From positions 1 to 37,421 of the forward strand of contig JBGPNV010000002.1 in NCBI GenBank assembly GCA_041487695.1: a stretch of 37,421 nt of DNA. Reading direction: 5' to 3'. The notes beneath the pieces are model-generated. The model ran no database searches, was not told where the DNA came from, and was given only the letters and a program-made list of their open reading frames with translations. Below are positions 12,114-36,253 of this stretch, one piece after another (position 1 is the first letter of the stretch; each line of letters opens with the position of its first letter). The translations under genes and the position numbers were made by a program. This DNA is from Thermoplasmata archaeon. Its GTDB lineage: Archaea > Thermoplasmatota > DTKX01 > DATEUP01.

Positions 12114-12860
12114 TCACACGACCCGCGGGTGCGCCGACTGCCGGTCGAGCTCGCGGATTTTCGCGCGGGTGAACCGGTAAACGAGGCTCGCGAAGATGAA
12201 CACGAGGAGGAGCGAAAGCAGGGCGGCCGAGTAGTCCTCTGTCGCGAGCAGAGTCATCGAGGCGAAGAGGTTGAAGAGCCCGTGCATCAGCATCGCGAGG
12301 AGTAGGAGGCGCAGGAACGCACCGGCGCCCTCGTTCATCCGCCGCGCTTTGGCGACCCCCCAGCCGGCCATGGCGGAGGACGAGGCGTGGAGCAGCGTGC
12401 TCGTGAGGGTGCGCAGGACCGAGGTGACGAGCCAGCCGGCCGTGCCGTAGACCGCGAGCGCCGCGAGCTCATAGGCGAGGTTCTCGGTCGCGGCAAACCC
12501 GAGGCCGGCGGCCGCGCCGTAGACGAGCCCGTCCTCCTCCTCGGCGAGGCGCTTCTTGCGCAGGAAAAAGAGCCCGGCGACCTTGACCGGCTCCTCGACG
12601 AGAGGTGCAAGGATCACGGCCAGCCACAGCTGCGAGGGCACGCGCGAGGGGCGGAAGGCGTCGAGGGGGACGTTCAGCGCGTCCTCGAGGATGAAGGCCA
12701 GGATGATCGCGACGATCGCGCCCCACGCGAACACGAAGAGCATGACCGGCATGGGATTGCGGGAGAAGCGCTCGGCGTTGCGGATGCGGATGAGGTAGAA
12801 GAGGGGGGGAAGGAAGGCGACGGCGAGGATCACGCCGACCCCGATGCTGGTGTCCGCCAT
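12114..12860 (-). CDS. PrsW family intramembrane metalloprotease
   Basis: Polytopic membrane protein with LVEEPVKVAGL (the EExxK motif) and LHASSSAMAGWG (His motif). A TATA-like CTATAA (12887-12892) lies 27 nt upstream of the ATG. Confidence 0.75.
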   Translation of the reverse strand: MADTSIGVGVILAVAFLPPLFYLIRIRNAERFSRNPMPVMLFVFAWGAIVAIILAFILEDALNVPLDAFRPSRVPSQLWLAVILAPLVEEPVKVAGLFFLRKKRLAEEEDGLVYGAAAGLGFAATENLAYELAALAVYGTAGWLVTSVLRTLTSTLLHASSSAMAGWGVAKARRMNEGAGAFLRLLLLAMLMHGLFNLFASMTLLATEDYSAALLSLLLVFIFASLVYRFTRAKIRELDRQSAHPRVV

Positions 12861-15294: not shown

Positions 15295-15537
15295 ATGGCA
15301 TCCAAGATGGTTTCGCTGGACACTGAGGCCTACGAGCTGCTGAAGGCCAAGAAACGCCCCGGCGAAAGTTTCAGTGAGGTCGTGAAACGTGTCGCCGCGC
15401 CGAAGCGTCCGCTTTCCGACTTCATCGGAATATGGAAGGACATGCCGAAGGGCGAACTCGACGAAGTGAACGAGATCATCAAGGAAGGCCGCCGCCTCGA
15501 CCTTGAGCGGCAGAACCGCCTGGCAAAACGAGCGTGA
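15295..15537 (+). CDS. vapB: VapB-type antitoxin (archaeal COG1753/DUF217-like)
   Basis: 80 aa. N-terminal SLDTEAYELLKAKKRPGESFSEVVKRV matches the archaeal putative-antitoxin family. It has a 4-nt GTGA overlap with the PIN gene. Confidence 0.75.
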   Translation: MASKMVSLDTEAYELLKAKKRPGESFSEVVKRVAAPKRPLSDFIGIWKDMPKGELDEVNEIIKEGRRLDLERQNRLAKRA

Positions 15538-15929
15538 TTGCCGTGTACTGCCTTGATTCCTGTTTCCTAATCGATGTGGCCAGCGGCGATGCCGGGGCAG
15601 CGCGGAAAGTGAGGGCCATGGAGGGCGCGGGCGCCACGATGGCCATCGCGGCTCCGGCCCTCACGGAAGTCCTCGTGGGCGCCCATGTCCGCGGCGGGGC
15701 GTACCTCCGAAGGATGACGGAGCTCCTCGCGCCGATGGACGTGTGGGCGACCGAGGCCTCCGTCGCCAGGGAGGCTGGCGAGCTTGGCGCCGAGATGCGC
15801 TCACGGGGTTTCCCGACACCCACCGTCGACCTGATCATCGCAGCGACGGCGCGCAGCCGGGCCGCTACGGTCGTGACCCGGGACGAGGCCTTTGGGCGCA
15901 TTCCCGGGATCGCCGTCGAGGCCTACTGA
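15534..15929 (+). CDS. vapC: PIN-domain ribonuclease toxin VapC
   Basis: 131 aa. N-terminal acidic LDSCFLID, a central E, and C-terminal DLIIAATA...VVTRDEAF are typical PIN acidic residues. Confidence 0.85.
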   Translation: MIAVYCLDSCFLIDVASGDAGAARKVRAMEGAGATMAIAAPALTEVLVGAHVRGGAYLRRMTELLAPMDVWATEASVAREAGELGAEMRSRGFPTPTVDLIIAATARSRAATVVTRDEAFGRIPGIAVEAY

Positions 15930-16013
15930 TACGGCGCCCCTGGGACCTGCGTGGGGGGCTCGGCGTGGCCCCGGGTTGTAGCCGGCGGCCCGTGCGAGAG
16001 GTTGAAACGGGGG

Positions 16014-16097
16014 TGCCGGGGGGGAGATGTGAACTCCCGAGCTCTTACGAAAGCAGTTTTCGAGACTGGCGCGTTACCGGCCTTGCGCGACCTCGGC
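16014..16097 (-). tRNA. tRNA-Ser (anticodon CGA), class II with long variable arm; atypical features
   Basis: Hand-folded sequence: GCCGAGG TC GCG CAAGGCCGGTAA CGC G CCAGT CTCGAAA ACTGC T-TTC-GTAA-GAG-CTC GGGAG TTCACAT CTCCC CCCCGGC A. The cloverleaf is present but has an A5.C68 mismatch, a C27.C43 mismatch and C at T-loop position 58. Confidence 0.7.
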
Positions 16098-16191
16098 AGA
16101 AGACGCGCCTGGCTTGCGGGGGAGGCCTTGGCGCCTCGCGGCCGGGGATTTGCGTTTGTGCGACGGAGATCCCGACCCCTGCCGCACGCCA

Positions 16192-16593
16192 TCATCGGAC
16201 CGCCTCCTTGGCGGCGTCCACGATACGCGCAGAAAGCTTGGCCATTTTTTCTGAGTCCCCGGTCGAGATTCGCCGCCCTTCATACTCGACGCTTTTCTTT
16301 CCACTGATCAGCTCATTCAGTTGGCGTTGAAGATCAGCCTTCCGCGGGTGGGCCGTTTGAGCCACGAGCGCAATTGCATCGGCGTCGCGTTGCCCGGCCG
16401 AACGAAGCCCCAGGAAATGGATGGTAATCGCGTCGACGGCGCTGATGCCGGCGTGAATGGCGAGCACGCCCGCCGCGCTGGGGTCCCCGGCGGCCAAAGA
16501 CCGGGCGGCCGCCCGCTGGAACTCCTCGGCCTTGCTAAGATAGGCGCGCGCCTCGTCCTTGGGTACGACGACGGTTTCGCGCTGCCTCGTCAT
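16192..16593 (-). CDS. HEPN-domain protein (putative toxin of HEPN/MNT module)
   Basis: 133 aa from ATG 16593, an all-helical sequence (AGVLAIHAGISAVDAITIHFLGLRSAGQRD...). Its ATG overlaps the MNT stop (ATGA at 16590-16593). The track N-terminal extension is junk. Confidence 0.65.
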   Translation of the reverse strand: MTRQRETVVVPKDEARAYLSKAEEFQRAAARSLAAGDPSAAGVLAIHAGISAVDAITIHFLGLRSAGQRDADAIALVAQTAHPRKADLQRQLNELISGKKSVEYEGRRISTGDSEKMAKLSARIVDAAKEAVR

Positions 16594-17183
16594 CGGGCGA
16601 CCTCCAGGGGATGGCCTTCGCGCCGCGCGACCTCCCGTATTCGGGCGCGGGCGCCGCCCTTCACCTGTTGCGCGGTGTACACGAGGGCCTGGACCGGGTT
16701 TCCAAAGCGGGCCAGGACTTGGGCCTCCAGGTTGCGGAGCGTGCTCGTCCACGCGGCTGCCCGCCGCTTGTCGGGGAAAACAACGAGGAGGTCCACGTCC
16801 GAATTGGGGTCCTCATCACCGCGCGCGACCGAACCGAAGAGGATTGCCTCCAGGGCGCCGGAGCCCTTTAGCGCCACCTCGAGGGCCGCAGTCAGCTCGT
16901 GGGTGGACGCGTTGTCCAGTCCGATGAGGGGCCTTAGCCGCTCGGCGAGGAAATGGCGTTCTTCGAGCGTCCATAGGCTGGCCCGCCCCGCGCGCCGTTG
17001 ACGCACGACAGCCTCATCGTAGAGGCGGTAGAGAGCCTCCATCGCCTGCGGCGCCGAAACGCTTGAGGCCTTTGCCAATTCCCGCCCCGTCCATTCGCGG
17101 CCGGGCGCCTTGAGGAGGGTCTTGAGGACCGCGATGCGGGCCGGACTCGTGAGGAGCGTTTCGGCCAGGTTGTGGAAGCGCAC
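16590..17183 (-). CDS. winged-helix + minimal nucleotidyltransferase (MNT) protein, putative antitoxin
   Basis: N-terminal wHTH (RIAVLKTLLKAPGREWTGRELAKASSVS...) followed by the nucleotidyltransferase motif LFGSVARGDEDPNSDVDLLVV. GTG start. Confidence 0.8.
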   Translation of the reverse strand: MRFHNLAETLLTSPARIAVLKTLLKAPGREWTGRELAKASSVSAPQAMEALYRLYDEAVVRQRRAGRASLWTLEERHFLAERLRPLIGLDNASTHELTAALEVALKGSGALEAILFGSVARGDEDPNSDVDLLVVFPDKRRAAAWTSTLRNLEAQVLARFGNPVQALVYTAQQVKGGARARIREVARREGHPLEVAR

Positions 17184-17212: not shown

Positions 17213-17484
17213 ATTAGTTAATGTTTTCCCTGTCGGGCCGCCGGCCCGCTGCGGCCTCTGGAGGCCATGGCGAGGGGCGGAGGTGCCAAGGGGGAGATTT
17301 GGACGCGGGTTTGCCGGTAAATCGTTCACGCGCCTGACCGCCGACCCTGACCCCCTAAACCGCAACAAGCCTACCAAACATGACTAATTGAGCCGCAAGC
17401 CGCGCTCCAATCTGGTTAAGGGCCTCGCCGCCCACGCCCATCCCGCTGCGAACCACAAGGGGCGCAGAAGGAGAACCTGCTCGG

Positions 17485-17631: not shown

Positions 17632-17800
17632 GCTCGCGAGCCGCGGCCCGCCACTAGCGCCGCACCAAACCTCCTAAATAGAACCACGAGGGGCGCGCCG
17701 ATATGGTTAAAACGAATAGAACGCCGAAAAAGGGCCTGTGCGCGACAGTTCGCGGCGAACGCAATCTTCGCCTTGGTTCGAAGGCGAGGGGAGGACCGGA

Positions 17801-20800
17801 ATGATCTCGTGGCTCCGGCCTTTGGTCGCAATTCTCTTGACAACGGTCGCCACTCTGCTCGTCGCGGGACTCTCGGCCGCGGCGTCTCCCATACTCGATT
17901 GGCATAGCGCCACGCTCATCGACAACGCTGACTCCTACAATCCGGCCGTTGTGGTCGATGCGAGCGGAGTCAGCACCGTCGTCTGGGACCAACTCAACGG
18001 AACACGCGCCGACGTCTGGGGCAATCGATACGTCCCAGGTGCGGGTTGGGGGTTCCCCACGCTGATCGAGGACGATGACGCCGCGAGTGCGTATGAGCCG
18101 CATGCCGCCGTTGATGCCACCGGGACGGTTACGGCAGCATGGTGCATGTCCGACGGGGAAGTTTGGGCAAACCAGTACTTCCCTGCATCGGGATGGGGAA
18201 CACCGACCCTTGTTGAGGCGAACACAACAGCAGGTTGCTCTGGCCCGCAGGTAGTGGTTGATCCGGGCGGCAATGCTACGGCCGTATGGTACGAGACGAG
18301 ATTCATACCGACTTTCGTTCGTGACATTTGGGCCAGCCGCTTCGTCCCGGGGTCCGGTTGGGAACCCGCTTTGCTAATCGAGACCAACGAAGGACAGGCA
18401 CAGGAACCCCAAATTGACGTTAGTGACAGCGGGGAGGTAACGGCAGTATGGCTTCAGCTAAACGTGACCTTGAACAAGCTTGATGTTTGGGCCAACCGCT
18501 ACGTACCGGGGTCAGGTTGGGGCACGGCAGCCCTCATCGAGATGCACGATGGGAATGCGGGTTGGCCGGACATCGCGGTTGAGGCCAATGGCAACGCGAC
18601 AGCGGTTTGGGAGCAATATAACTTTACAAACGCCAGCCTCTTTTCGAATCGCTACACAGTAGGTTCGGGATGGGGGCTGGCGGCACCAATACCGATGAGT
18701 AACGACTCCGGAGGAGGGACCAACGCCCAAGTCGCCACAGACGAGAACGGGACAGCCTTTGCGACGTGGAAGCAGTGGGATGGGATCGTCTATAGCATCT
18801 GGGCGAGCAGGTACACGCCGGGCTACGGCTGGGGAAATGCTAGCCTTCTTGAAACGGACTCGGGTCTCGCCCACGACCCCGCCCTCGCGGTCTCCGCCGC
18901 GGGCGAAGCCACGGTGGCATGGGGGCAAGATGACGGGGTTCGATGGAACATGTGGGCAAACCGTTTCGTCCCCAACGTGGGTTGGGGCAACGCAACCCTC
19001 CTCGAGAGTGGCGACGGAAACGTTACTTGGCCAAGTGTGGCCGCCGACACAAGCGGATACGTGACGGTTGTGTGGCCCCAGTACGATGGGACATTCTACA
19101 GCCTGTGGGCAAATCGGTTCGGCCCCGCCTCGAACATCACGGTGATGTCAAGCCCAGTGGGGCTTGAGTTCGCCGTCAATGGAACCAATTACACCGTCTC
19201 CACCTCCTTCAGTTGCTTCAAGCATGTGCCAATCGCCGCCTTGTCCCCGCAGGAGATTGAAGGCGTCCGTTACGGCCTTGAAAACTGGTCCGATGGCGGC
19301 GCAAGAATGCATTTCGCGGATTGTAGCGCCGACCGAACGATCATTGCGAGTTTTGTTCCGACAGATTTCCAGGTCCAACTCATCACCACGCCGCCCGGGC
19401 TAACCCTCATGATCGACGGCATCCCAAGCCCAGGGAACGCATCCTTCTGGTGGAGCGCCGGAAGTACACACACGTTCTCCGATCCAGGCGGGCAAACGTT
19501 GGGAGACATGCATTTCCGGCTATCGAACTGGTCGGATTCGAGCGACTCTAATCGAACGATTCTGATCGGCGCACCCTTGGAACTTGTTGCATACTTCGCA
19601 GTTTCTGAATACCGTGTCCAAGTCGACAGTGTGCCCGCCGGGCGGAGCGTGCAAATCAATGGTCTGTCTGTCCCGACGCCCGTGGTGCGGTGGTTCCAAC
19701 CCGGGTCGCTACTCGATGTGGGGATCGTGTCCCCGCAGTTGGCTTCCCCAGGCATTCGCTACGGCTACGCGCAATGGGACGACGGCGGCTCGCAAAACCG
19801 GTCCATGCCGTTAATGGCCCCGCTAAGCCTGACCGCGCGTTTCTTCGCAGAGTTTTCTGTCTCCATCACTTCCTCTCCGATGGACTTCACCCTAGAGATC
19901 GACGGAGTTCCGATGAGGGCGCCAGTCGAGAATTGGTGGGCGGACGGGTCCTCTCACGCGCTCAACCAACCGGCATCGCTTCAAGAGGTCGGGCAGGTTC
20001 GGTATGTGCTGTCAGCATGGCGCGACGGGAGCCCAACAAACCGGAGCTTCGTGGTCAGCGGCCCGCAGTCGATCGGGGCGGTCTTCGCGCCCTCCGAGTA
20101 CTTTGTGAGGCTGACCACGAACCCCGTCCCCCTTGAATTGGAGATCGACGGAGCAACCGCAATGGCCCCCATCGAGGCGTGGTGGGCTGTGGGGTCGATC
20201 CATTGGATCGGTGCCGTGTCCCCACAAGCCGGCGGCTCGGAGCGCTTCACCTTCTCGAGTTGGAGCGACTCTCTCGGCACGACTCACCTTGCGGTCGCTG
20301 ATGGCCCCCTCGCCTTGTCCGCGCTCTATGACATCCAATGCGCTGTCACGATCGACGCATCTCCTGGTGTGACGGCCCTTGCCGTCGACGGCCAATTTCA
20401 GGCGATCCCGGCATCGCTTTGGTGGACAAACGGGTCCACGCACACGGTCGGATTGCTTCCGCCCTCCGTGTCATCGCCGGACACGCGGTTCGAATGGTCC
20501 AAGTGGAGCGACGGCGGGAACCGGAGCCACTCAGTCATCGTCGGCGGGCCTCTGTCCGTTCGCGCGGAGTTCGTAACGATGTTCCTGCTCGTGGCCGACA
20601 GCCCCTTCACGATCCCCGCGTGCGACGTCGCAAATTGCTGGTATGCCAATGGCAGCATGGCGGCCGTCTCCGTCCAGGCCTTCCTCTCCGCCGGCGAGGG
20701 GACACGCAACGCGTTCGCCGGGTGGGTCGGCGATGTCACGGACTCGCATGCCTCCGCGACAATCCTTATGGATGGGCCGAAGCGTTTGAGCGCCTCCTGG

Positions 20801-21763
20801 AAACTCCAATACGAACTGCGCGTCGAATCGGCTTATGGCTCCACGACTGGACAGGGCTGGTATGACGCCGGCTCGACGGCTCACCTGGCGGTCGTCTGGC
20901 CGAACGCAACCTCCTCCGGTGCCTCGTTCGTGTTTGGGGGATGGCGGGGAGGGATCGAATCGGATGCGCTGGAGCTCGACCTGACCATGGACTCCCCGAA
21001 GTCCGTCACCGTCAATTGGGTTGCGGCAGCTGGCCCGAGCTCCTCGCTGCCCATCGAAGTCGCCGGTGCAAGCATCTTGACCCTGATTATCGCCGGCCTC
21101 GTGTCCGTCACCTCCTCGCGTGCGGGGTTCGCCCTCGACGGGTTCGTGACCGTGCCGCTCTTCACGCGCCTGAAGAAGATCGATGTCACCTCGCAGTACC
21201 AGCGTGGCCGCCTCATCCAGTTCATTGATGACAACCCAGGTGCCAGCTACTCCGAGATCCGGCGGCGGCTGCAGATTGCCAACGGTGGATGTGCGTACCA
21301 CCTGCGTGTGCTCGAGCGCAGCGGCGAGATTCGGCGCGTGGCCCACGGCACGTCCGTCCGCTTCTACCCGGCCGACTACAGGGTCGATCCGGAGTCGCTT
21401 CCGCCGTTGTCGCTCGTCCAGCGGCGCATCCTCGAGCTCCTCCTCGCGCGGCCCGAGAGTGCGGCCGCCGAGCTTGGAAAAACCCTGGCAAGCGAGGGCC
21501 ACGCGATCAGCGAATCCACTTTGCTGTATCACATGAAGACCCTCGCAAGGGAGAAGAGCCTAATCACGATGCGCCGCGAGGCGGGTCGAACGAAGTACTC
21601 CCTGACCTCTGAACAGGCCGCCTACCTTAGGCGACGTCTTGGGGAGGAGGCCGCGGCCGACACGCTCCTGGATAGGGCAATGGACTCGAATCATGGGAAC
21701 GGCGAGCCTCATGGCGCGCCCCAAGCAACAGAGCCGAAGGACGAAGACCAAGGAGGGAAGTGA
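17801..21763 (+). CDS. giant membrane-spanning protein: signal/anchor, 8 propeller-like repeats, ~8 InlB-B-repeat-like modules, TM helix, two cytoplasmic wHTH domains
   Basis: 1320 aa from ATG 17801, with GGGGAGG 6-7 nt upstream. See the repeat features and findings below. TM helix IEVAGASILTLIIAGLVSVTSS is at 21050-21115. The wHTH-like segments are at 21200-21373 and 21413-21613. Confidence 0.85.
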   Translation: MISWLRPLVAILLTTVATLLVAGLSAAASPILDWHSATLIDNADSYNPAVVVDASGVSTVVWDQLNGTRADVWGNRYVPGAGWGFPTLIEDDDAASAYEPHAAVDATGTVTAAWCMSDGEVWANQYFPASGWGTPTLVEANTTAGCSGPQVVVDPGGNATAVWYETRFIPTFVRDIWASRFVPGSGWEPALLIETNEGQAQEPQIDVSDSGEVTAVWLQLNVTLNKLDVWANRYVPGSGWGTAALIEMHDGNAGWPDIAVEANGNATAVWEQYNFTNASLFSNRYTVGSGWGLAAPIPMSNDSGGGTNAQVATDENGTAFATWKQWDGIVYSIWASRYTPGYGWGNASLLETDSGLAHDPALAVSAAGEATVAWGQDDGVRWNMWANRFVPNVGWGNATLLESGDGNVTWPSVAADTSGYVTVVWPQYDGTFYSLWANRFGPASNITVMSSPVGLEFAVNGTNYTVSTSFSCFKHVPIAALSPQEIEGVRYGLENWSDGGARMHFADCSADRTIIASFVPTDFQVQLITTPPGLTLMIDGIPSPGNASFWWSAGSTHTFSDPGGQTLGDMHFRLSNWSDSSDSNRTILIGAPLELVAYFAVSEYRVQVDSVPAGRSVQINGLSVPTPVVRWFQPGSLLDVGIVSPQLASPGIRYGYAQWDDGGSQNRSMPLMAPLSLTARFFAEFSVSITSSPMDFTLEIDGVPMRAPVENWWADGSSHALNQPASLQEVGQVRYVLSAWRDGSPTNRSFVVSGPQSIGAVFAPSEYFVRLTTNPVPLELEIDGATAMAPIEAWWAVGSIHWIGAVSPQAGGSERFTFSSWSDSLGTTHLAVADGPLALSALYDIQCAVTIDASPGVTALAVDGQFQAIPASLWWTNGSTHTVGLLPPSVSSPDTRFEWSKWSDGGNRSHSVIVGGPLSVRAEFVTMFLLVADSPFTIPACDVANCWYANGSMAAVSVQAFLSAGEGTRNAFAGWVGDVTDSHASATILMDGPKRLSASWKLQYELRVESAYGSTTGQGWYDAGSTAHLAVVWPNATSSGASFVFGGWRGGIESDALELDLTMDSPKSVTVNWVAAAGPSSSLPIEVAGASILTLIIAGLVSVTSSRAGFALDGFVTVPLFTRLKKIDVTSQYQRGRLIQFIDDNPGASYSEIRRRLQIANGGCAYHLRVLERSGEIRRVAHGTSVRFYPADYRVDPESLPPLSLVQRRILELLLARPESAAAELGKTLASEGHAISESTLLYHMKTLAREKSLITMRREAGRTKYSLTSEQAAYLRRRLGEEAAADTLLDRAMDSNHGNGEPHGAPQATEPKDEDQGGK
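17900..19123 (+). repeat. eight tandem ~46-52-aa protein repeats ending in W(A/G)NRY.PG.GWG (predicted beta-propeller)
   Basis: Repeat ends seen: VWGNRYVPGAGWG, VWANQYFPASGWG, IWASRFVPGSGWE, VWANRYVPGSGWG, LFSNRYTVGSGWG, IWASRYTPGYGWG, MWANRFVPNVGWG, LWANRFGP. Each is preceded by a G..TAVW strand. Confidence 0.75.
19133..21019 (+). repeat. about eight tandem ~75-80-aa modules resembling divergent InlB B-repeat domains
   Basis: The recurrent core is (R/H)(Y/F).(L/F/W)..WSDGG..(N)RS. Examples: VRYGLENWSDGG, MHFRLSNWSDSS, IRYGYAQWDDGG, VRYVLSAWRDGS, ERFTFSSWSDSL, TRFEWSKWSDGG, NAFAGWVGDV, FVFGGWRGG. Confidence 0.65.
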
Positions 21764-21767
21764 AACG

Positions 21768-22073
21768 ATGGTGGAGACACGAAAACACGAGTCGAGAATT
21801 GGAATTAGCCTCACGTCGAAGAACGCCAAGGGGAATCTCGCGCCTCACGGGCGGGCCGGGACGGTGGCCGTCGCCGTCCTCGCTTTGGGGCTCGTCGCGC
21901 TTATGGCCGTATTGCCCGCAACGGCAGCAGACGCCCCGCAGTACCGCGACGACAACAACAACGGAAAATGTCCGGGCAGCTACACGCTCATTCATATCGG
22001 TTCGCTTAATGCCTACTTGGAAGCATACGACCTGAACCAAGACGGGTTGGTTTGCGGGCGCGGTCTGTACTGA
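21768..22073 (+). CDS. small secreted/membrane-anchored protein with DxNxDG calcium-loop-like motif
   Basis: 101 aa from ATG 21768, 4 nt after the giant gene stop, with AAGGAGGG about 10 nt upstream. It has a basic N-terminus, hydrophobic AVAVLALGLVALMAVLPATAADA, and a 45-aa mature part with 2 Cys and DLNQDGLVC. Confidence 0.55.
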   Translation: MVETRKHESRIGISLTSKNAKGNLAPHGRAGTVAVAVLALGLVALMAVLPATAADAPQYRDDNNNGKCPGSYTLIHIGSLNAYLEAYDLNQDGLVCGRGLY

Positions 22074-22136
22074 CTGGTTGCTGGCCCGCGCGGGCTGCGC
22101 CCCTCGGCCCCGGCGAATGACTTGCCCCATGAAGAG

Positions 22137-22220
22137 TGCCGAGAGGGAGATTTGAACTCCCGAGCTCTTACGAACACCAGTTTTCAAGACTGGCGCCTTC
22201 CCGGGCTAGGCTACCTCGGC
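22137..22220 (-). tRNA. tRNA-Ser (anticodon TGA), class II
   Basis: Hand-folded sequence: GCCGAGG TA GCC TAGCCCGGGAA GGC G CCAGT CTTGAAA ACTGG T-GTTC-GTAA-GAGC-TC GGGAG TTCAAAT CTCCC TCTCGGC A. All stems pair (one G.U), the T-loop is canonical, and the variable arm is long. Confidence 0.9.
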
Positions 22221-22250: not shown

Positions 22251-22256
22251 CTTAAA
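22251..22256 (-). promoter_or_regulatory. TATA box (TTTAAG on minus strand) for tRNA-Ser(TGA)
   Basis: Lies about 31-36 nt upstream of tRNA position 1 and overlaps the TAA stop (22252-22254) of the upstream FG-GAP gene. Confidence 0.45.
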
Positions 22257-25200
22257 CGTTGTCGGGGGGCGCGCGGCGGCGCCGAAGGAGCAGGGCGAGC
22301 GCGGCGACGGCGGCGGCGGCCACGAGGACGATGGCGGCGAACCCCGCATCGGCAGTCGGGGCCGTAACTTGAGGCGCGGTCGGCGGGGGCGGATTCGCCT
22401 CCGGGGGCGGCGGGACGACGACCTGGACGGTCACATTCGTCCGGACCTCGCCGTCCATCGAGTCGCGGACGACGAGACACAGTTCCACGGTGCGCGCGGT
22501 GGTCGTGCGCATGGGCTCGGCTGCATCCGCTGAGAAGTTGACGCTTGCGTTCGTCGAGAACGGCGGCGGGGGACGCGGCGGGGCGGGCGGGCGCGAGGGT
22601 TGAGGCGTGCACGAGCTCCACGCGTAGCGCAGGGGCTGGCCCTCGGGGTCGGTGGCCCTCGCATTCAAGGTGAGGTTCCCAAGGACGGCGACGGTGAAGT
22701 TCGCGGGCGTCGACTCGATCGTGACCGTCGGCACCTGGTTCACTCGGACCGTTGTGAGCGCCGTCACGGTGCGCCCGCCGCGCTCGCGGACCGTGAACTG
22801 GACGGTCGAGTTGCCCCGCTCGAACACACCGCCATTGGCAAACGAGGCGCTCCACTCGTCGGTGGAAACGGAGGTGGGAGACAGCGGCCAGACGGGGCCG
22901 AAGTCCAGGTCCGCCGGCCCCTTGATGCGATACGTGGCCCCGCCCGGTGAGACGGCGTCGAGGCCGCGCTGGGCGACGCCCTCCGGGCTGCCCTCGTGTG
23001 CCGCCAGCGAGAGGGGGACCGGGCCAAGCGGGAAGATCGAGCTTTCGTTCGGCTGGACCGAGACGATGATCGGCCGCAACGAGTCCACCCGGATCTGGAA
23101 CGGGTCGGAGAGCCGCAGGCCCACGCGCGCGTTGCTGTCGGCGCGCCACTGGACCCAGTTCGCGTCGCCTTCCTCGAGCGAGAGCGCGGTCGTAGCGACG
23201 AAGGCGGGGTCGAGGGGCGAGGAGAGCGTCGGGGCGGAGGTCCAGGGCCCGAAGGCGAAGAGGCCGGCCGTCGAGACGCGGTACTCGACCGAAGAACGGT
23301 AGACCCCGCTTGAGCCGCTGAGGATCTCCACGTTCGCGACGACCGACTGAGCGTTTTGCCATTCCGAGGCGGGAGGCCGGGGGTTTTGGAACGTGAGGCC
23401 GGTCGTGTCGACCTTGACGCCGAAGATGGGCGACTCGGCCGGGCCGTTGCCTGCTTTGTCCCATACGCGCCAGATTACGTTGGACAGGTTGCCTTCGGGG
23501 AAGGCGATGAGCGCTTGGCCCACGACCTCCGCCGCGGTCTGGCCCGGCAACGCAGTTGCGCGGTCCCAGCGAACGAAGGGCGCGCCGTCGTTTTCCCACG
23601 AGTACTCGATCCTGTCGGGGTCGACGCCCGATTCGTTGTCGAAGATGTCGACGGCGGCGAACGTGGGGGTCGACGTGACCCACTCGGACTCAAGGGGGAG
23701 GTGGGCGCCGAATTGCGGCAGGTCGCCGTCGAGGTTGATCGTGAAGTTGAAGGGGGCGGCGAGCCACGGAGCCGGTCCGGTCAAGATATCGACGCTCGCG
23801 ATTCCGAACGTGTACACCTTGCCCCTCGCCGTGGCCGGAAGAGTGCTCACGTTCGAAACCCGTGCGCCACCCGCCGGAGTCTCGAGCGCCATCGCGGTTC
23901 CCTCCCCTAGGAGCCAGTCGAAGAAATGCGGGGGGACCGGAATCTGCGGCAGTGCCGCATAAACGACGCTGAGGTTCGAAAAATTGATGGGCGCCCCCGC
24001 GCGCGACCACCCACCCTCGTCGAGCATGCGGCCGTCGGATTCGGCGGCAAGCGGCCCCCGGATTTCTACACGTGGGTCGTATCGCCCCGCGTTCGGGTTC
24101 TGGAAGTGCTCGCCGGGGCGACCCCAGAAGAAGTAAGCGTCCAGCGAGACCCTGTGAGGCGGCGCACCAGACCAATTCAGCCGGAAGGGGATGCCGATGT
24201 CCCAATGCGTGCCCGCAGGCCCGTCTGTCCGGTTGGCCCAAGACCCGGGGGCTATGGACATTACGTTGGGCGCCGAAGACACGACGACCGGCCCCGTCTG
24301 GTTCATGTCAACGTAAAGGCCGGGGGACAAACCGGTGACATTGATCCGCAGGTCCGTGCTGTTTCCGGTCGTCGTCCACCCCTGCACGTGGATCGTGTAG
24401 GTGCTGTCGCCCGGGATGAGGACTCCGCCGGAGTTGCCTTCGATCCAGACCCCGGCGTAGCGATCGACGACCGTCCGCCCGTAGAGCACGGCCACCAAGC
24501 CGGAGACCGATGTCCGCCCGCGCTCGGGCGCGTTGCCGCCGTAGTAGCCGACGGTGATGTCCTTGAGGCCGTCGCCGTCGTAGTCGCTGGCTACATTGAG
24601 GCGCAACCCGCCATCGTTCGTGTAGATGTCTGTGCCCGAGAGTGTGATCTCGGAAGAGTAGGAGAGGCTGGCCTCATCCGCCGCAAGGCAGTCCCGCAGC
24701 GGCCCGCAGATCGACGGGTTGACAAAAACATCGACAAGGATGTGCCCCGAGCTTGCGCTGGTCGTGTCGTACTTCAAGGTCACGAAGTCCGCGCGTCCAT
24801 TTCCGTCGATGTCCCCCACCTGAAGGCGCGGCGGTGGCTGGCTGGCGAAGATCGAAGGGCCCTGAAGGTGGAGAGACTCGGAGGGACGAGATTCGAGCCC
24901 GTTGCCCCCGATCCAAAAATGGAAGTTGACGTTCAGGAACGGGGAGGGGGAGATCCCTGGCTGGGCCGGCACAAACCCCCATGTGGCAAGGTCGGTGTGC
25001 CCATCGCCGTCGAAGTCGCCGAAGGCCGCCTGCGGCTGTTCGAGGGGAATTTCTTGAGCGGAACTTGGGGTGGGGCCGGCCTGCGACCCGTTCAGGATTG
25101 TCAGGAACCCGGGGGCAGGGACCCCGGTTGGCGAGGGGGCGATTGGAGACCAAAGGGCGAGGTCGGCAAGCCCGTCGAGGTCGAAGTCGGGCGCGGCGAG

Positions 25201-26025
25201 GAAACGGGGGGGCCGGGGCTGGGCGGAAAGGGGAGTCGGCTCGGGGAGGGTCCAGGGGTCGCTGGCCCCCGCCATCTGCCGACCCTTGATGTAGAAAACC
25301 TGGAATTGCGTAAAGGCCGGCGTCGTGCCGTTGTTCGCACGCTCGGGGTGCGGTTCCTCCACGATGACCGCCGCTCCATCACCGGGGCGCAACGGGGGCG
25401 TCAGATAGGCGAAAGCGGTCGGATTCCCTTGGACGCGCGGGGGGAGCTCGACCATCGGCGGCTGGGCGGCTGGCCACGGATAGGAGAAGTTGGGCGGAGT
25501 TTGGAAAAACATCCGGAAGGAGCCGACGGGGCAGGGATCGTAGAAACTGCAAGACAAAATCCCAGGGCCGACCCAGGTAAGCCAATCGTCGGCTCCGTCG
25601 AAATCCGCGTCAATGTGGGTGGGCGCCAAGTCGAGTTCCGAACCCGCTCCGGCGGGCCCATAAGGTTCAAACTCGGGATCGCCGAACCCGCCCCTGCACT
25701 TCAGGGGGCAGGCCTGCTCAAGAACGCTCCCGTTTGGCTGACCCCAACCCACAAACTGGCCCGGGCCCCCAAGACCAACGGTCCAGCCAACCAAATCGTC
25801 GTTGCCATCGCCGTTGAGGTCGCCGGGGCTTTGAAAGAGTGCCTCGCTGTAATTCATGGCCCAAGGGGATGCTAGCGAGCCATCGGCCGCTGGGGGAATG
25901 ACAAGAAGCCAGTCGGGTGCCGTGACTGCCAACGTCCCGAACGTTTGGGCCGCGGCCGAAAATGGCAGGCTGCTCGCAAGTAGGAGGACGCCTACGCCCA
26001 CAGCCCCCGCACCCCGCCCGCGCAT
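22252..26025 (-). CDS. giant secreted FG-GAP/VCBS-repeat (integrin-alpha-like propeller) surface protein with Ig/PKD-like domains and C-terminal anchor
   Basis: 1257 aa. Signal peptide is MRGRGAGAVGVGVLLLASSLPFSAAAQT. Six DxDxDG Ca-loop motifs. Long beta-rich middle section. PKD-like ATDPEGQPLRYAWS near the C-terminus. Pro-rich linker, then AGFAAIVLVAAAAVAALALLLRRRR. Confidence 0.85.
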   Translation of the reverse strand: MRGRGAGAVGVGVLLLASSLPFSAAAQTFGTLAVTAPDWLLVIPPAADGSLASPWAMNYSEALFQSPGDLNGDGNDDLVGWTVGLGGPGQFVGWGQPNGSVLEQACPLKCRGGFGDPEFEPYGPAGAGSELDLAPTHIDADFDGADDWLTWVGPGILSCSFYDPCPVGSFRMFFQTPPNFSYPWPAAQPPMVELPPRVQGNPTAFAYLTPPLRPGDGAAVIVEEPHPERANNGTTPAFTQFQVFYIKGRQMAGASDPWTLPEPTPLSAQPRPPRFLAAPDFDLDGLADLALWSPIAPSPTGVPAPGFLTILNGSQAGPTPSSAQEIPLEQPQAAFGDFDGDGHTDLATWGFVPAQPGISPSPFLNVNFHFWIGGNGLESRPSESLHLQGPSIFASQPPPRLQVGDIDGNGRADFVTLKYDTTSASSGHILVDVFVNPSICGPLRDCLAADEASLSYSSEITLSGTDIYTNDGGLRLNVASDYDGDGLKDITVGYYGGNAPERGRTSVSGLVAVLYGRTVVDRYAGVWIEGNSGGVLIPGDSTYTIHVQGWTTTGNSTDLRINVTGLSPGLYVDMNQTGPVVVSSAPNVMSIAPGSWANRTDGPAGTHWDIGIPFRLNWSGAPPHRVSLDAYFFWGRPGEHFQNPNAGRYDPRVEIRGPLAAESDGRMLDEGGWSRAGAPINFSNLSVVYAALPQIPVPPHFFDWLLGEGTAMALETPAGGARVSNVSTLPATARGKVYTFGIASVDILTGPAPWLAAPFNFTINLDGDLPQFGAHLPLESEWVTSTPTFAAVDIFDNESGVDPDRIEYSWENDGAPFVRWDRATALPGQTAAEVVGQALIAFPEGNLSNVIWRVWDKAGNGPAESPIFGVKVDTTGLTFQNPRPPASEWQNAQSVVANVEILSGSSGVYRSSVEYRVSTAGLFAFGPWTSAPTLSSPLDPAFVATTALSLEEGDANWVQWRADSNARVGLRLSDPFQIRVDSLRPIIVSVQPNESSIFPLGPVPLSLAAHEGSPEGVAQRGLDAVSPGGATYRIKGPADLDFGPVWPLSPTSVSTDEWSASFANGGVFERGNSTVQFTVRERGGRTVTALTTVRVNQVPTVTIESTPANFTVAVLGNLTLNARATDPEGQPLRYAWSSCTPQPSRPPAPPRPPPPFSTNASVNFSADAAEPMRTTTARTVELCLVVRDSMDGEVRTNVTVQVVVPPPPEANPPPPTAPQVTAPTADAGFAAIVLVAAAAVAALALLLRRRRAPPDNV
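24451..25848 (-). repeat. FG-GAP-like repeat region (six recognisable Ca-binding loops)
   Basis: Motifs seen: GDLNGDGNDDLVGW, DADFDGADDWLTW, PDFDLDGLADLALW, GDFDGDGHTDLATW, GDIDGNGRADFVTL, SDYDGDGLKDITVGY. Confidence 0.7.
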
Positions 26026-28201: not shown

Positions 28202-30532
28202 ATGGTCTTCCCGCCCCTTACCGTGCAAGACCGCATCGTTTTGCACCTAATGGACTACCAGAACTTCTCGGACAAGTACGAGGTCCCCGCGCAGGTGACC
28301 CAACGCGGCATCGGCGAGGCGATTGAAATCGCCTGGAGCAACGTGCCGCGCGCGATGAAGAAGCTTGTGACCGACGGCATCGTGGAGGAGAAGAGCGCGA
28401 GGATCAAGGGCGACAAGCGCAAGAAGAAGGCCTACTTCCTCACGCACAAGGGCTACTCGTCGGCCCTTGCGCTGAAACAGGAAATGGGCACCCGCCCGAT
28501 CGTGGTCGTCGACGGGGACACGCAGCGCGAGGTCCTCACGAGCGAGCTTGCCAAGGAGACGGGCCTCTCGCTCTCCTTCCTCTCCTTCGTCATGAAGATC
28601 GCGACGGACGGCAAGTTCGATGTGGCAAGGGCCCGCGCGGTGGGGTCGACCCCCGCCGGCATCGTCGAGGCGATCGAGGGCGCGCCGGCGGTCCGCGCCT
28701 TTGTCGGGCGCGACAGCGACCTCTCGGCGCTCACGGCGATCATCGCGGCACACCAGGTGGCCGTGGTTTGGGGCGTTGCCGGCGTCGGCAAGACGACGCT
28801 CGCGATCAAGTCCATCGACCCGATGAAGGGCAAGCGCTCCGTGTTCTACGTGCGGCTGCGCACCTGGACCAACCTCGTCGGCGTGCTGATGCCGCTCGCG
28901 CGGTTCCTCGGCAAGATGCGGCGCACGCGCCTCCTTACCTACATCTCGACGACGACGCAGCCCGCCGTGGGCGACCTGCCTTCGGTCCTCAAGGAGGACT
29001 TCGACCAGATCGACGCCGTGCTGTATTTCGACGACCTGCAGGACGCGCCGCAGGAGATCCAGCAGTTCGTGCGCTTGCTCGTCGAAGTGAAGCCCGAATA
29101 CCCGAACCTCGCGATCGTCCTCGTGTCGCGGCCGCTGCCCCACATCATCGACAGGCGCGAGGTCGCGGTGACCAAGCGCGTCGTCGAGGTAAAACTCGAG
29201 GGCCTTGACAAGGCGAGCGCGCGGCTCATTGTGCGCCCCGAGATCATCGCGAGCCCCGAGGAGTTCGAGGAGGTCTACAAGCGCACGGGCGGCGTGCCGC
29301 TGCTCTTGGAGCTCGCTCAGCCCACGACTCGCCCCGCATACACGTCCGACGCCGCGGCGTTCGTGCAAAACGAAATCGTGAAGCGCCTGTCGCCCGGCGC
29401 CCTCGACCTTGTCTCGCTCGCGTCCGTTTTCCGCACGACAGTCAAGCGCGACGCGCTCTTTGGCCTGCCCGCGGCCAAGCCCGAGCACCTCGAGGAACTC
29501 GTCCGCTTTGACCTCCTCAGGGAACGGCCCGACGGCCGGTACGACATCCACGACGTGGTGCGCGAGTTCGTGTACACGAAGCTCACGCCCCAGCAGCTCA
29601 TCGAGTTCCACACGGCGGCCGCCGAGTTCCTCTTGAGGTCCGAGGAGCCGAAGGACGTCCTCGAGCGGATCTTCCACCTCGAGCGCGCGGGCCAGACGGC
29701 GGCTGCGGCGACCGCCGCGATCGCGGAGGGCTGGCGCCTTATCACGGCGGGGCTTTACCGCGAACTCCTGGGGACCGTCGAGAACCTCTCAGGCAAGGGC
29801 CTGGATGCGCGGGGCGTCATGGCGCTCGACGAGCTCAAGTCCGACCTCTATGCGAAGATGGAGAGCTGGGAGCCGTCTTTCGACCACGCCAAGGCCGCCC
29901 TCGACCGCTCGCTCGAACTTGGGCGCCACGAAGATGCCGGCCGCCTCTTTGCCAAGGTCGCGTGGCTCGAGGCCCAACGCGGTCTCACGGACGCCGCGAT
30001 CGAGCACTTCAACGAGTCGATCAAGATGCTTGCGGTCGCGGGCTCGGGCGCGTCCTCGGACCTCGCCCACGCCGAAATCAACCTCGGCATCGCGCTCCTG
30101 CGCCGCGAGGAGGTCGACGCGGCCCTACCGCACCTCGAGCGCGGCGGCGAGATCGCGCGCGCCGCCGGCAAGCCGATGCTCGCCGCCGAGTCGGGCCTCC
30201 TCATCGCCAAGACGCTCGCCGAGCGCGGGCAGCTGCCGCCCGCGCGGTCGCGCGTGAACGACGCGCTCAGCATGCTCGAAGGCGCGGAGGGCACGGAGCG
30301 CCCGCGCGCGGAGGCGCTCCTCCTGCTTGGCGAGCTTGCGCTCAAGGAGAAAAACTTCGACGAGGCGATCGGCCACCTCGAAGAGTCGCTCGAGCTTTGC
30401 GAGGAACTCGAGATCATCGACCTTGCCGTCAAGCTGGCGCAGCAGCTCGTCGAAGCCTACACCGCGATTGGCGACAAGGAGAGCGCCGACTTCTACGCGA
30501 AGAAGTCCCAGCAGTGGGCGCCTACGCTTTGA
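28202..30532 (+). CDS. wHTH - P-loop NTPase (STAND/AAA_16-like) - TPR repeat protein
   Basis: 776 aa. N-terminal wHTH is QRGIGEAIEIAWSNVPRAMKKLVTDGIVEE plus a basic wing. Walker A is GVAGVGKTT (28772-28795). Walker B-like is AVLYFDDLQD. The C-terminal ~300 aa are helical TPR-like repeats. Confidence 0.8.
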   Translation: MVFPPLTVQDRIVLHLMDYQNFSDKYEVPAQVTQRGIGEAIEIAWSNVPRAMKKLVTDGIVEEKSARIKGDKRKKKAYFLTHKGYSSALALKQEMGTRPIVVVDGDTQREVLTSELAKETGLSLSFLSFVMKIATDGKFDVARARAVGSTPAGIVEAIEGAPAVRAFVGRDSDLSALTAIIAAHQVAVVWGVAGVGKTTLAIKSIDPMKGKRSVFYVRLRTWTNLVGVLMPLARFLGKMRRTRLLTYISTTTQPAVGDLPSVLKEDFDQIDAVLYFDDLQDAPQEIQQFVRLLVEVKPEYPNLAIVLVSRPLPHIIDRREVAVTKRVVEVKLEGLDKASARLIVRPEIIASPEEFEEVYKRTGGVPLLLELAQPTTRPAYTSDAAAFVQNEIVKRLSPGALDLVSLASVFRTTVKRDALFGLPAAKPEHLEELVRFDLLRERPDGRYDIHDVVREFVYTKLTPQQLIEFHTAAAEFLLRSEEPKDVLERIFHLERAGQTAAAATAAIAEGWRLITAGLYRELLGTVENLSGKGLDARGVMALDELKSDLYAKMESWEPSFDHAKAALDRSLELGRHEDAGRLFAKVAWLEAQRGLTDAAIEHFNESIKMLAVAGSGASSDLAHAEINLGIALLRREEVDAALPHLERGGEIARAAGKPMLAAESGLLIAKTLAERGQLPPARSRVNDALSMLEGAEGTERPRAEALLLLGELALKEKNFDEAIGHLEESLELCEELEIIDLAVKLAQQLVEAYTAIGDKESADFYAKKSQQWAPTL

Positions 30533-30742: not shown

Positions 30743-31780
30743 GTGCTCGTGCGCGTCGTGGGGGGACCTCTGGGTTACTTCGTCGCCCGGGCCCGCGCGC
30801 CGGGCCGCGAGGTCTGGTGGGGCTGCCTCACGACCGTGGTGCCGCTCATCGGGTTTGTGCTCCTCTTCGTGTTCCACGGTCCCAAACCCGACGTCTCCAC
30901 GGGCTCCTGGAACCCGTGGGTGCTCTGCCCGTTTTGCCGGACTCCGCGCGGGTACTCGCAGCTGCCTTGCCCGAATTGCGGGCAGGCGCTCCCCGTCCGG
31001 CCCGGGTATGCCCCGCCGCCCCCGCCGCCTTCCGCCCCTCCCTCGCGCGCTCGCGAAATCCGCGGCGGCCAGGTCGCGGGGGCCCTGCTCTTCACCATCC
31101 TCCTTGCGAACCTCGCAGTGATCCTGCTCATCCTCCCGGTCCTTGCCGACCCAGCGACGAGCGGGACCCGCGTGCGCGAGATCTCGGGAGCGGCGTGGTT
31201 CATCCTTCTCGCGCTCGTCGTGCAGGACTCGATCATGACGGCCGTCGCCGTCGACCAGGCCGTGTTCCGCAAGCGGCTCACGTGGGAGGACATGGGCCTC
31301 TCGCTGAAGCACGTGCCCTTCTCGGTGCCGCGCCAGCTCGGCCTCGGCGTCGGCGCGGGGGCCTTCACCTTCCTGATGTCGACCTTCGCGCTGCTCATTT
31401 TCCTGCGGACGCTCTCGCTGGCGGGGGTCTCAACCACGGGCGCAAGCACGAGCCCGACGCAGCCGCGCATCGAGTCTGTTTCCGACTACGGGTACTGGCT
31501 CGTGGCCGGCGTGATCGTGGCGCCCTTTGCCGAGGAGGTCTTCTTCCGTGGCTACGGTTTGGGAGGCTTCGTAAAGCGCCGCCAGGCCAACCGCGGGCTT
31601 GTGATCACGAGCGCGCTTTTCGCGGCGGCTCACCTCGACCCCATCGCGTTCTTGCCGCTGTGGGGGGCGGGGATGGTGCTCGGGACGCTGTACCTCGAAA
31701 CGGGGTCGCTCCTTGCCCCGATCGTCGCGCACGCGACGAACAATTTCATCGCGATGACTCTAACGTACTTTGGAATCTGA
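30743..31780 (+). CDS. CPBP (CAAX/Abi) family intramembrane metalloprotease with N-terminal TM + zinc-ribbon + Pro-rich linker
   Basis: CPBP motifs FAEEVFFRGY, FAAAHL and HATNNF. The N-terminal region has CPFCRTPRGYSQLPCPNCGQ, then PPPPPPSAPP. GTG 30743 is the first canonical start after an in-frame TGA at 30635-30637. Confidence 0.8.
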   Translation: MLVRVVGGPLGYFVARARAPGREVWWGCLTTVVPLIGFVLLFVFHGPKPDVSTGSWNPWVLCPFCRTPRGYSQLPCPNCGQALPVRPGYAPPPPPPSAPPSRAREIRGGQVAGALLFTILLANLAVILLILPVLADPATSGTRVREISGAAWFILLALVVQDSIMTAVAVDQAVFRKRLTWEDMGLSLKHVPFSVPRQLGLGVGAGAFTFLMSTFALLIFLRTLSLAGVSTTGASTSPTQPRIESVSDYGYWLVAGVIVAPFAEEVFFRGYGLGGFVKRRQANRGLVITSALFAAAHLDPIAFLPLWGAGMVLGTLYLETGSLLAPIVAHATNNFIAMTLTYFGI

Positions 31781-36204: not shown

Positions 36205-36253
36205 GGGGTCGCGCGGGCCTCCTTTGCTTTTGGTTGCGCCGCCGGCAAGCCCG

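Follow-up and report, generated by a model that had tools for sequence, protein, structure and literature searches.

A candidate transmembrane regulator with a lectin-like ectodomain and a tandem winged-helix tail, and its large family in Thermoplasmatota

The window, i.e., the whole stretch of DNA analysed here, comprises 37,421 nucleotides of contig JBGPNV010000002.1 (assembly GCA_041487695.1, a Thermoplasmata archaeon), and carries on its forward strand, at 17801..21763, a single open reading frame (ORF) of 1320 aa counted from the ATG at 17801. Read from its N-terminus, the encoded protein consists of a signal-like segment, an eight-repeat beta-propeller, eight beta-modules, one transmembrane helix, a juxtamembrane motif, two winged helix-turn-helix (wHTH) domains, a long helix and an acidic end. 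This ORF is one genuine gene, and the fusion that it encodes has been kept across independent genomes. Alignments and domain searches further show the tail to be a constant module behind highly variable ectodomains of apparent surface type, in a family that numbers thousands of sequence clusters. On balance, the window protein is probably a membrane-tethered transcription regulator with a lectin/adhesin-type sensor.

The order of ectodomain, transmembrane helix and tail within a single 1320-aa frame, as it had been read in the original prediction from the letters of the window, was borne out by the ORF itself, by hydropathy, by Pfam searches, by structure models and by paralog alignments. Two starts are available to the ORF, at 17738 and at 17801, with its end at 21763, and the Shine-Dalgarno-like sequence GGGGAGGA lies 6 nt on the 5′ side of the ATG at 17801. 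An independent Thermoplasmata metagenome-assembled genome (MAG) holds six paralog loci, all of which were found by a GTDB genome scan that used a profile of the close tails; five of them contain intact ORFs (870, 1600, 1075, 735 and 1341 aa) and one more is partial. An ectodomain, a transmembrane helix and a tail are present in every one of the five intact ORFs, and a separate N-terminal hydrophobic segment in four of them. Protein BLAST of the window protein against intact paralogs gave alignments that run uninterrupted over the junction, covering window residues 524-1312 (L002), 769-1294 (L003) and 586-1266 (L005).

The idea of an artefact, in which a chimera, a frameshift or a read-through had fused a C-terminally anchored surface gene to a separate small gene for a transmembrane wHTH protein, drew on the first, word-indexed search with the tail, whose only two close relatives were both short (P0121, 265 aa, and P0122, 256 aa), and on the existence of ectodomain homologs that bear transmembrane anchors of their own. 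The 265-aa protein, however, proved to be the outcome of an insertion into the same fusion. At its locus (L001, from a second metagenome), a 1.3-kb insertion sequence (IS; 278-1586 of JGI Ga0256864_1007966) separates an ectodomain ORF from the tail gene; the element has 15-nt perfect terminal inverted repeats (TCAGTAGATAGCGAA) and a 3-bp target duplication (AAC), and encodes a 413-aa DDE transposase whose match to Pfam DDE_Tnp_1 falls just under the cutoff. The ectodomain ORF, which is situated at the contig edge, matches window residues 987-1079, i.e., the last ectodomain module (E 5e-19), and the insertion point lies exactly between this module and the transmembrane helix of the orthologous fusion gene. 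Removal of the IS and of one AAC leaves one frame, ...KTVTANW...(transmembrane helix)...PLFTRLRR..., that is co-linear with ...KSVTVNW...(transmembrane helix)...PLFTRLKK of the window, and the tail split off by the IS is still an intact ORF that has retained its own transmembrane helix. In the case of the 256-aa protein, 72 nt separate the gene start from the end of the contig, so that the shortness of this protein is not to be taken literally. Furthermore, the single transmembrane helix at the junction of ectodomain and tail aligns with that of the wHTH family and is not an added anchor, the five intact long paralogs of the other MAG align without a break at the junction, and long relatives number in the hundreds. 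A chimera or frameshift at 21.0-21.2 kb, which had been a concern in the original prediction, is excluded by the paralog junction alignments together with the IS-healed ortholog, and the artefact as a whole, being scarcely credible any longer, can be regarded as effectively excluded.

In a Kyte-Doolittle analysis of the whole protein, no strongly hydrophobic stretches stood out other than aa 1-33 and aa 1080-1110. The first coincides with the anticipated N-terminal signal or anchor, which is present as a signal-like segment, and the second contains the one hydrophobic helix that had been expected, IEVAGASILTLIIAGLVSVTSS. The sequence LFTRLKK, noted earlier behind this helix, turned out to be part of a juxtamembrane motif of the family: PLFTRLKK occupies aa 1119-1126 of the window protein, the pattern of a polar turn, 11-12 hydrophobic residues and PL[FY]x[RK][LI][KR][KR] was seen in 155 relatives, and all 28 aligned tails have the motif. 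The first wHTH starts about 8 residues past the motif and about 27 past the transmembrane helix. Lysine and arginine are few before the helix of the window protein and many after it, in agreement with the positive-inside rule, and the same distribution is seen in the family, where K+R after exceeds K+R before in 147 of 148 relatives, with a mean of 0.88 before the transmembrane helix and 4.05 after the motif. N-x-S/T sequons, of which about 25 had been counted by eye, number exactly 25, all within aa 66-1035 (shuffles of the protein give 8.0 +/- 2.4), and the 240 residues C-terminal of the helix have none. The signal-like N-terminus, the restriction of the sequons to the N-terminal side and the positive-inside rule together point to a type-I topology, in which the ectodomain would lie outside and the tandem wHTH tail in the cytoplasm, as was originally proposed; the N-terminal segment would then be a Sec signal, and the ectodomain would be glycosylated and displayed outside. 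A hairpin of two transmembrane passes that would put the wHTH domains on the extracellular side was also considered, and is disfavored by the positive-inside rule (147/148) and by an Asp within the juxtamembrane stretch of the window protein.

Both wHTH-like modules foreseen at the C-terminus were found, the first by Pfam and the second by the AlphaFold2 (AF2) model and the family profile. The first unit matches HTH_HVO_0163_N (PF24266, E 2e-11), HTH_20 (PF12840) and HTH_24 (PF13412) above their cutoffs, and is modelled by AF2 as H-H-H-beta-beta with a predicted local distance difference test (pLDDT) score above 90. Its closest solved sequence relative is PDB 5DUK, a 77-residue “putative DNA binding protein” that bears the motif of the first wHTH and is matched by the family profile at E 5e-12. 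In the tail alignment this unit has invariant R, G, H and L residues, the H and L of which sit in an ArsR-like “YHLxxLE” recognition helix. The second unit gave a weak match when a single sequence was compared with hidden Markov models (NCBIfam ArsR-type NF033788, E 7e-7, under cutoff) and is modelled by AF2 in the same H-H-H-beta-beta order, likewise with pLDDT above 90; at its position the family profile matched HosA/MarR, HlyU, SmtB, ArsR, AdcR and CzrA, and distant family members have HTH_24/MarR matches with E down to 1e-17. Against the PDB, the family profile matched DNA-binding regulators only (5DUK, HosA, HlyU, SmtB, ArsR, AdcR and CzrA), and both units carry a net basic charge of about +3. 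The prediction of ArsR-like domains of the DNA-binding type is thus supported, in the form of a tandem of ArsR/MarR-like wHTH units, by Pfam, family profile and AF2 alike. The acidic tail is present as well, being disordered in the AF2 model, and the long helix that precedes it is kept only in the close subfamily, that of the window protein, and is missing from distant members. The 37-kb window contains no second copy of the tail. As to what has been published on the relatives of the first unit, HVO_0163 appeared in a proteomics paper only as an “ArsR-type”, hypochlorite-induced protein, and the papers that carry the string “5DUK” were unrelated to that PDB entry.

The ectodomain begins with the eight propeller-like repeats of the original prediction, confirmed by the repeat count, by the AF2 model and by the lectin folds retrieved with Foldseek. 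The repeats are about 51 aa each and end in W-[AGS]-[NS]-[RQ]-[YF]; the AlphaFold model, built from a 41-sequence alignment, is all-beta with a pLDDT of 93.5 and a predicted TM-score (pTM) of 0.91. The top PDB matches of this model in Foldseek were the PLL/PHL lectins of Photorhabdus and the CV39L lectin of Chromobacterium (E 7e-14 to 1e-11, TM-scores 0.55-0.75), and sialidases and glycoside hydrolases came next. The W-rich blades are common to these lectins and the window propeller, at an identity of 10-20%; lectins of this type are seven-bladed, whereas the window propeller has eight sequence repeats. By analogy with them, the propeller may bind a glycan or another carbohydrate, or a surface. 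The repeat itself apparently belongs to an unnamed family, with the consensus ...PQVAxDxxGNAxAVWxQxDG....IWANRYxxGxGWGTAxLIE, and its sole library match, to the NCBIfam “PDIAV motif-containing lipoprotein”, was sub-threshold. Sequence homologs of the propeller (P0002-P0120) are mainly bacterial multidomain surface proteins, e.g., of Geobacteraceae, Nitrospirota and Deltaproteobacteria, in which it is fused to Ig, PKD, FG-GAP and peptidase domains. A full-length phmmer search against PDB sequences found no match.

Eight modules follow the propeller, as had been proposed, six with a spacing of 81 aa and two with a spacing of 73 aa. Their description as InlB-B-repeat-like stands for two of the eight, since only aa 931-1078 match PF18998 (Flg_new_2; E 1.7e-5, 25.1 bits, above the gathering cutoff of 23.6); the orthologous module at the IS-bearing locus also matches this family. 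The six 81-aa modules matched no Pfam family, and modules homologous to them occur in the proteins P0004 and P0010 and in paralogs of the tail family. P0004 and P0010, which are close homologs of the ectodomain, end in a plain transmembrane anchor and are without wHTH.

The size of the family became apparent when 1.84 billion cluster representatives were searched exhaustively by HMMER, with aa 1070-1320 (the tail) as query: 3,627 of them matched at E<=1e-3, and 1,017 still did so at E<=1e-10. A word-indexed profile search had given only 9 proteins. Among the 149 best relatives, the tail match is C-terminal in 145, a hydrophobic helix abuts it in 134 and 86 have a further, separate hydrophobic segment at the N-terminus, and the region before the transmembrane helix varies from 0 to 1,534 aa (median 354). 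The first wHTH unit matched HTH_HVO_0163_N, HTH_20 or HTH_24 in all eight relatives that were scanned for domains, and the ectodomain domains of scanned members include DUF7948 with SBBP propeller repeats, fn3, PKD, CARDB and NEW3. In the closest relatives, whose tails are 43-51% identical, B-repeat-like modules or propeller repeats of the window type recur in other combinations. The window protein has the features that mark the family, i.e., tandem winged helices with a PF24266-type first unit, an abutting transmembrane helix with the juxtamembrane motif, an N-terminal hydrophobic segment, a variable ectodomain and a host among the Thermoplasmatota.

A GTDB genome pattern scan with a single tail sequence gave no confirmed match, and, as the 28 aligned tails diverged too far for such a scan, their alignment was split into a close (A4) and a distant (A5) subgroup. 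With the distant tails, 138 loci were found; among the 80 loci listed, all lie in MAGs labelled Thermoplasmata, Thermoplasmatota, Methanomassiliicoccales, Methanobacteriota or Euryarchaeota, and several genomes have three to seven family copies. The complete genomic relatives (n=71; 169-1361 aa, median 752) have a transmembrane helix adjoining the tail in 66 cases and a separate N-terminal hydrophobic segment in 57. The MAG Thermoplasmata archaeon OBJ_0618_7090110_316 contains at least seven family paralogs (L002-L007, L076), with ectodomains of about 500 to about 1070 aa, which suggests a diversified repertoire of receptors or surface proteins. FtsY encoded in the window is 85% and 74% identical to that of Thermoplasmatota/Thermoplasmata MAGs, the paralog-bearing one included, and the closest tail paralogs come from the same MAG group as these FtsY relatives; prefoldin, aIF2-beta, a presenilin-type signal peptide peptidase (SPP) and HTH_10 are further archaeal markers of the window.

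The fusion of ectodomain, transmembrane helix and wHTH is thus conserved in archaeal MAGs, as both the intact paralogs and the family searches attest, and the impression that the protein is an isolated case has to be withdrawn, since thousands of relatives share the plan and some have already been named regulators in databases. One member, MBM4247901.1, is called “winged helix-turn-helix transcriptional regulator” at NCBI, and two others “predicted transcriptional regulator” at JGI. No paper describing ectodomain–transmembrane–tandem-wHTH proteins of Thermoplasmatota was found in the literature searched, which included papers on archaeal dark matter and on type IV pili. Candidate type-I transmembrane regulators with a C-terminal tandem wHTH and lectin/adhesin-type ectodomains are, in that literature, undescribed, and are present in databases under generic names. 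The features of the gene and of its immediate surroundings are collected in Table 1.

Table 1. Features of the gene and its surroundings, with positions in the window
Feature	Coordinates	Strand	Basis
Whole gene, predicted type-I membrane protein with tandem wHTH tail	17801..21763	+	ORF; Shine-Dalgarno-like GGGGAGGA; alignments to the L002, L003 and L005 paralogs unbroken over all domain junctions
N-terminal signal-like hydrophobic segment, aa 1-30, ...GLSAAASP	17801..17890	+	Kyte-Doolittle peak aa 1-33; one R in n-region; A-A-A-S motif
Eight-repeat beta-propeller, lectin-like, aa 31-440	17891..19120	+	~51-aa W-rich repeats; AF2; Foldseek
Six ~81-aa beta-rich modules, aa 445-930	19133..20590	+	W-[SDRK]-D-[GS] anchor in each, at aa 496, 577, 659, 740, 821 and 902
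Two divergent InlB B-repeat modules, aa 931-1078	20591..21034	+	Pfam PF18998 Flg_new_2, two stretches
Transmembrane helix, aa 1085-1106, IEVAGASILTLIIAGLVSVTSS	21053..21118	+	Second and last strong hydrophobic peak; aligns with the transmembrane helix of all tail-family members
Juxtamembrane segment with motif P-L-F-T-R-L-K-K, aa 1107-1126	21119..21178	+	P and L nearly invariant in alignment A1
Winged helix 1, aa 1134-1193, ArsR-like, “AYHLRVLE” recognition helix	21200..21379	+	Pfam; AF2; family profile
Winged helix 2, aa ~1205-1275	21413..21625	+	Sub-cutoff NCBIfam; AF2; family profile
Long C-terminal helix (aa 1270-1299) and acidic, disordered end	21608..21760	+	AF2 helix at tail residues 201-230
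Small ORF, 101 aa, signal peptide, “DLNQDGLVC”	21768..22073	+	Sequence
22-nt copy of tRNA-Ser 3′ end	17283..17304		3 mismatches; 0.00 expected by chance in 100 shuffles

The small ORF downstream starts 4 nt past the stop of the large gene and is probably co-transcribed with it. Without the signal peptide, its product would measure about 48 aa, within which there are two Cys and a motif resembling DxNxDG. Pfam gave no match for this ORF, which does not recur beside the paralogs. The expectation that the two small neighbors might be conserved with the fusion fared no better elsewhere, as neither the paralog loci nor the clustering of flanking ORFs in 86 loci showed them beside relatives. All-against-all clustering of these flanking ORFs found no family-wide neighbor and only local synteny in one orthologous subgroup, and such a lack of a family-wide partner gene is as expected of one-component proteins. 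The copy of the tRNA-Ser 3′ end is located 497 nt upstream of the large gene, the similarity stopping at the 22 nt, and together with the tRNA-Ser(tga) gene (22136-22220) it brackets 4.8 kb that hold the large gene and the small ORF only. The large gene has a GC content at third codon positions of 0.73, well under the 0.82-0.91 of its neighbors. The bracketed segment has the appearance of a leftover from the integration of a cassette, though there is no integrase. Another tRNA gene, tRNA-Ser(cga) at 16011-16098, was called by ARAGORN and was not reported by Rfam at E<=0.1.

Several other genes of the window deserve mention. The convergent neighbor (22252-26025, minus strand) encodes a second giant surface protein of 1257 aa, with a signal peptide, FG-GAP repeats, a Pro-rich stalk, a C-terminal transmembrane anchor and an RRRR tail, and a large secreted protein adjoins the tail-family gene in about 10 of the 86 related loci. 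Just upstream of the large gene there are two toxin-antitoxin-like pairs (15295-15929, plus strand, and 16192-17183, minus strand), one of which is VapB with a PIN protein and the other an MNT-type nucleotidyltransferase (PF01909) overlapping a 186-aa ORF that has no Pfam match and is possibly HEPN; on the contig that encodes P0122, a VapBC pair is likewise close to the tail gene. Intramembrane proteases are encoded at 12114-12860 (minus strand; PrsW family), 30743-31780 (plus strand; Rce1/CAAX-like) and 35290-36285 (minus strand; presenilin-type SPP, PF06550). A 776-aa STAND-like protein encoded at 28202-30532 (plus strand), with an “archaeal ATPase” domain (PF01637/AAA_16) and C-terminal TPR repeats, appears unrelated to the large gene.

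If the window protein is indeed a membrane-tethered regulator, it would be exported by Sec via its N-terminal segment, so as to present the N-glycosylated propeller and the stalk on the cell surface, where the propeller would bind its glycan or surface. In the cytoplasm, the two basic wHTH units would form a pseudo-dimer on DNA via their conserved “YHL” recognition helices, and occupancy, clustering or shedding of the ectodomain would alter the effect of the tail on transcription, the tail acting either still tethered or once cut loose. A one-component logic of this kind is a plausible and the most economical reading. Several points weigh against it. The hosts are uncultured, and for every member of the family DNA binding, signal and activation are deduced from sequences and models; hydropathy, charge and sequons were the only guides to the topology, and the transmembrane region of the model is of low confidence. 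Propeller, B-repeats, CARDB and PKD are what one usually meets in adhesins and structural surface proteins, not in classical sensors of small ligands, and P0010 and P0004, with their plain anchors, indicate that such an ectodomain can work without an output domain. The tether between the membrane and the first wHTH is very short, which would make DNA binding at the membrane sterically demanding, and the tandem units as a whole have scaffold proteins, namely YceH, ScpB, RPC34/62 and ESCRT-II, as their top Foldseek matches (E ~3e-4 to 1e-3, low TM-scores).

This last observation underlies the main rival to the regulator reading, namely that the tail is no transcription factor and that its tandem winged helices are a module for protein interaction or anchoring, as in ScpB, ESCRT-II and YceH, which would fasten the variable surface proteins to some partner in the cytoplasm or, non-specifically, to the nucleoid. 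On this view the window protein would be, in essence, an adhesin or a cell-surface glycoprotein whose anchor is elaborate. The ectodomains fit such a role well, as they are of adhesin type and interchangeable and have paralogs with simple anchors, and so does the occurrence of multiple paralogs per genome with hypervariable exteriors, which is more like the repertoires of surface proteins than like sets of sensors. The scaffold superpositions are, however, poor (TM-scores 0.2-0.4, with a large root-mean-square deviation), whereas regulators with a single winged helix superpose at 2-4 A. Moreover, at the level of sequence both units, which are basic, match DNA-binding regulators and not scaffolds, and neither H nor L varies in the ArsR-type recognition helix. 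With these arguments on the side of DNA binding, the scaffold is an unlikely explanation.

A further alternative keeps the regulator and changes its mode of action. The protein would be an inactive, membrane-held precursor, in the manner of Notch or SREBP, that is cut inside its transmembrane helix or beside it by an intramembrane protease after ligand binding or shedding of the ectodomain, and the free tandem-wHTH tail would regulate genes from the cytoplasm. The spacer of about 8 residues between motif and first wHTH, which argues against DNA binding by an anchored tail, and the Gly/Ser-rich transmembrane helix would favor release; IEVAGASILTLIIAGLVSVTSS contains the helix-destabilizing residues G, S and T and is followed by a conserved polar turn. 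Presenilin-type proteases prefer type-I substrates with a single transmembrane helix, a topology that the window protein would share, and the window encodes the PrsW, Rce1-like and presenilin-type SPP proteins mentioned above. The tail that was separated by the IS is, in addition, an intact ORF with its own transmembrane helix. The three protease genes, on the other hand, are neither adjacent to the large gene nor co-conserved with the family, no cleavage motif is defined, homologs made up of a soluble tail only do not dominate the family, and the case is inferential throughout. Release by proteolysis is a rather unlikely, though not a negligible, candidate. Its most specific version, an archaeal counterpart of Notch in which multi-paralog lectin/adhesin receptors have their tandem-wHTH freed by the presenilin-type SPP or by PrsW after contact with a glycan, a particle or a cell, and thereby reprogram transcription, is more speculative and must be called improbable. 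To our knowledge, no natural substrates of archaeal presenilin homologs have been identified; if this version were true, it would provide them with substrates, and the Thermoplasmatota with a contact-sensing system.

Transmembrane signal transduction in archaea is poorly understood, and the window protein represents, cleanly and with good support, a very large family, with thousands of sequence clusters and often several copies per genome, in the Thermoplasmatota of soil, sediment and groundwater. If the tail regulates, the family would be a major unexplored route by which contact with polysaccharides, particles or cells is coupled to gene expression, and its compact modular receptor, made of a sensor, one helix and a DNA binder, would appeal to synthetic biology. 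Should the tail be a scaffold instead, a new kind of anchor for surface proteins would be defined. In either case, the impression of a singular protein is corrected.

Among known systems, the broadest frame is that of the transmembrane transcription regulators (TTRs), defined as single proteins for which both a DNA-binding domain and one or more transmembrane regions are predicted (Demey et al. 2023, PMC10269533). In a census of bacteria and archaea, single-pass forms were the commonest, and about 4 TTRs were found per archaeal genome (PMC10269533). The window protein falls under this definition, as it combines a DNA-binding-type domain and a transmembrane helix in one polypeptide; it has this domain at the C-terminus, preceded by a signal-like segment and an ectodomain of very large size. 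The main text of the census mentions neither Thermoplasmat*, CARDB, PKD, HTH_20 nor HTH_24, and does not describe the tail family (PMC10269533).

The original prediction had compared the protein to ToxR and CadC, and of this comparison the one-component logic remains plausible, whereas family and geometry do not hold. ToxR, CadC and TcpP share with the window protein a sensor outside, one transmembrane helix, a winged helix inside and no phosphorelay. ToxR-type proteins have an N-terminal cytoplasmic domain of the OmpR/PhoB type and a C-terminal periplasmic sensor, whereas in the window protein the order is reversed, the winged helices are a tandem of ArsR/MarR type, and a far larger ectodomain goes with a far shorter tether. 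Membership in the ToxR/CadC family was rejected, as there is no Trans_reg_C match even at E<=1 and the DNA-binding-type domain is C-terminal, with the sensor N-terminal.

The crenarchaeal regulator ArnR has an N-terminal HTH and C-terminal transmembrane helices, without a large ectodomain. ArnR and ArnR1 of Sulfolobus are membrane-bound archaeal one-component regulators (PMC6396743, PMC4858521), the transmembrane domain being N-terminal according to PMC4858521. They were the only membrane-bound archaeal regulators found in the literature searched, and are without a large sensor domain. Compared by description only, ArnR/ArnR1 and the window protein are both archaeal and have a membrane-bound HTH and no kinase, and ArnR differs in the large ectodomain that it lacks.

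The individual winged helices have their counterparts in the ArsR/SmtB and MarR repressors (CzrA, SmtB, HlyU and HosA, with 5DUK), with which they share the fold and the “xHLxxL” signature of the recognition helix. These repressors are soluble homodimers with one winged helix per chain, many of them with metal sites, whereas in the window protein two winged helices are fused in tandem and anchored in the membrane. Membership among the ArsR/SmtB metalloregulators was rejected on account of the score against NF033788 (HTH_metalloreg), 29 bits with a cutoff of 55, and of the two winged helices per chain.

Two systems resemble the window protein in plan and not in descent. The RsgI anti-sigma factors of Clostridium thermocellum have a carbohydrate-binding exterior, one transmembrane helix and a transcription output inside, which takes the route of a sigma factor, and Notch is a type-I protein with a giant, repeat-rich ectodomain that is released by a presenilin protease. 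Homology to either is absent, the topology of RsgI is the opposite one and release of the tail is hypothetical in the present case; what the three have in common is the arrangement of a ligand module on the exterior, a transmembrane helix and an output domain behind it.

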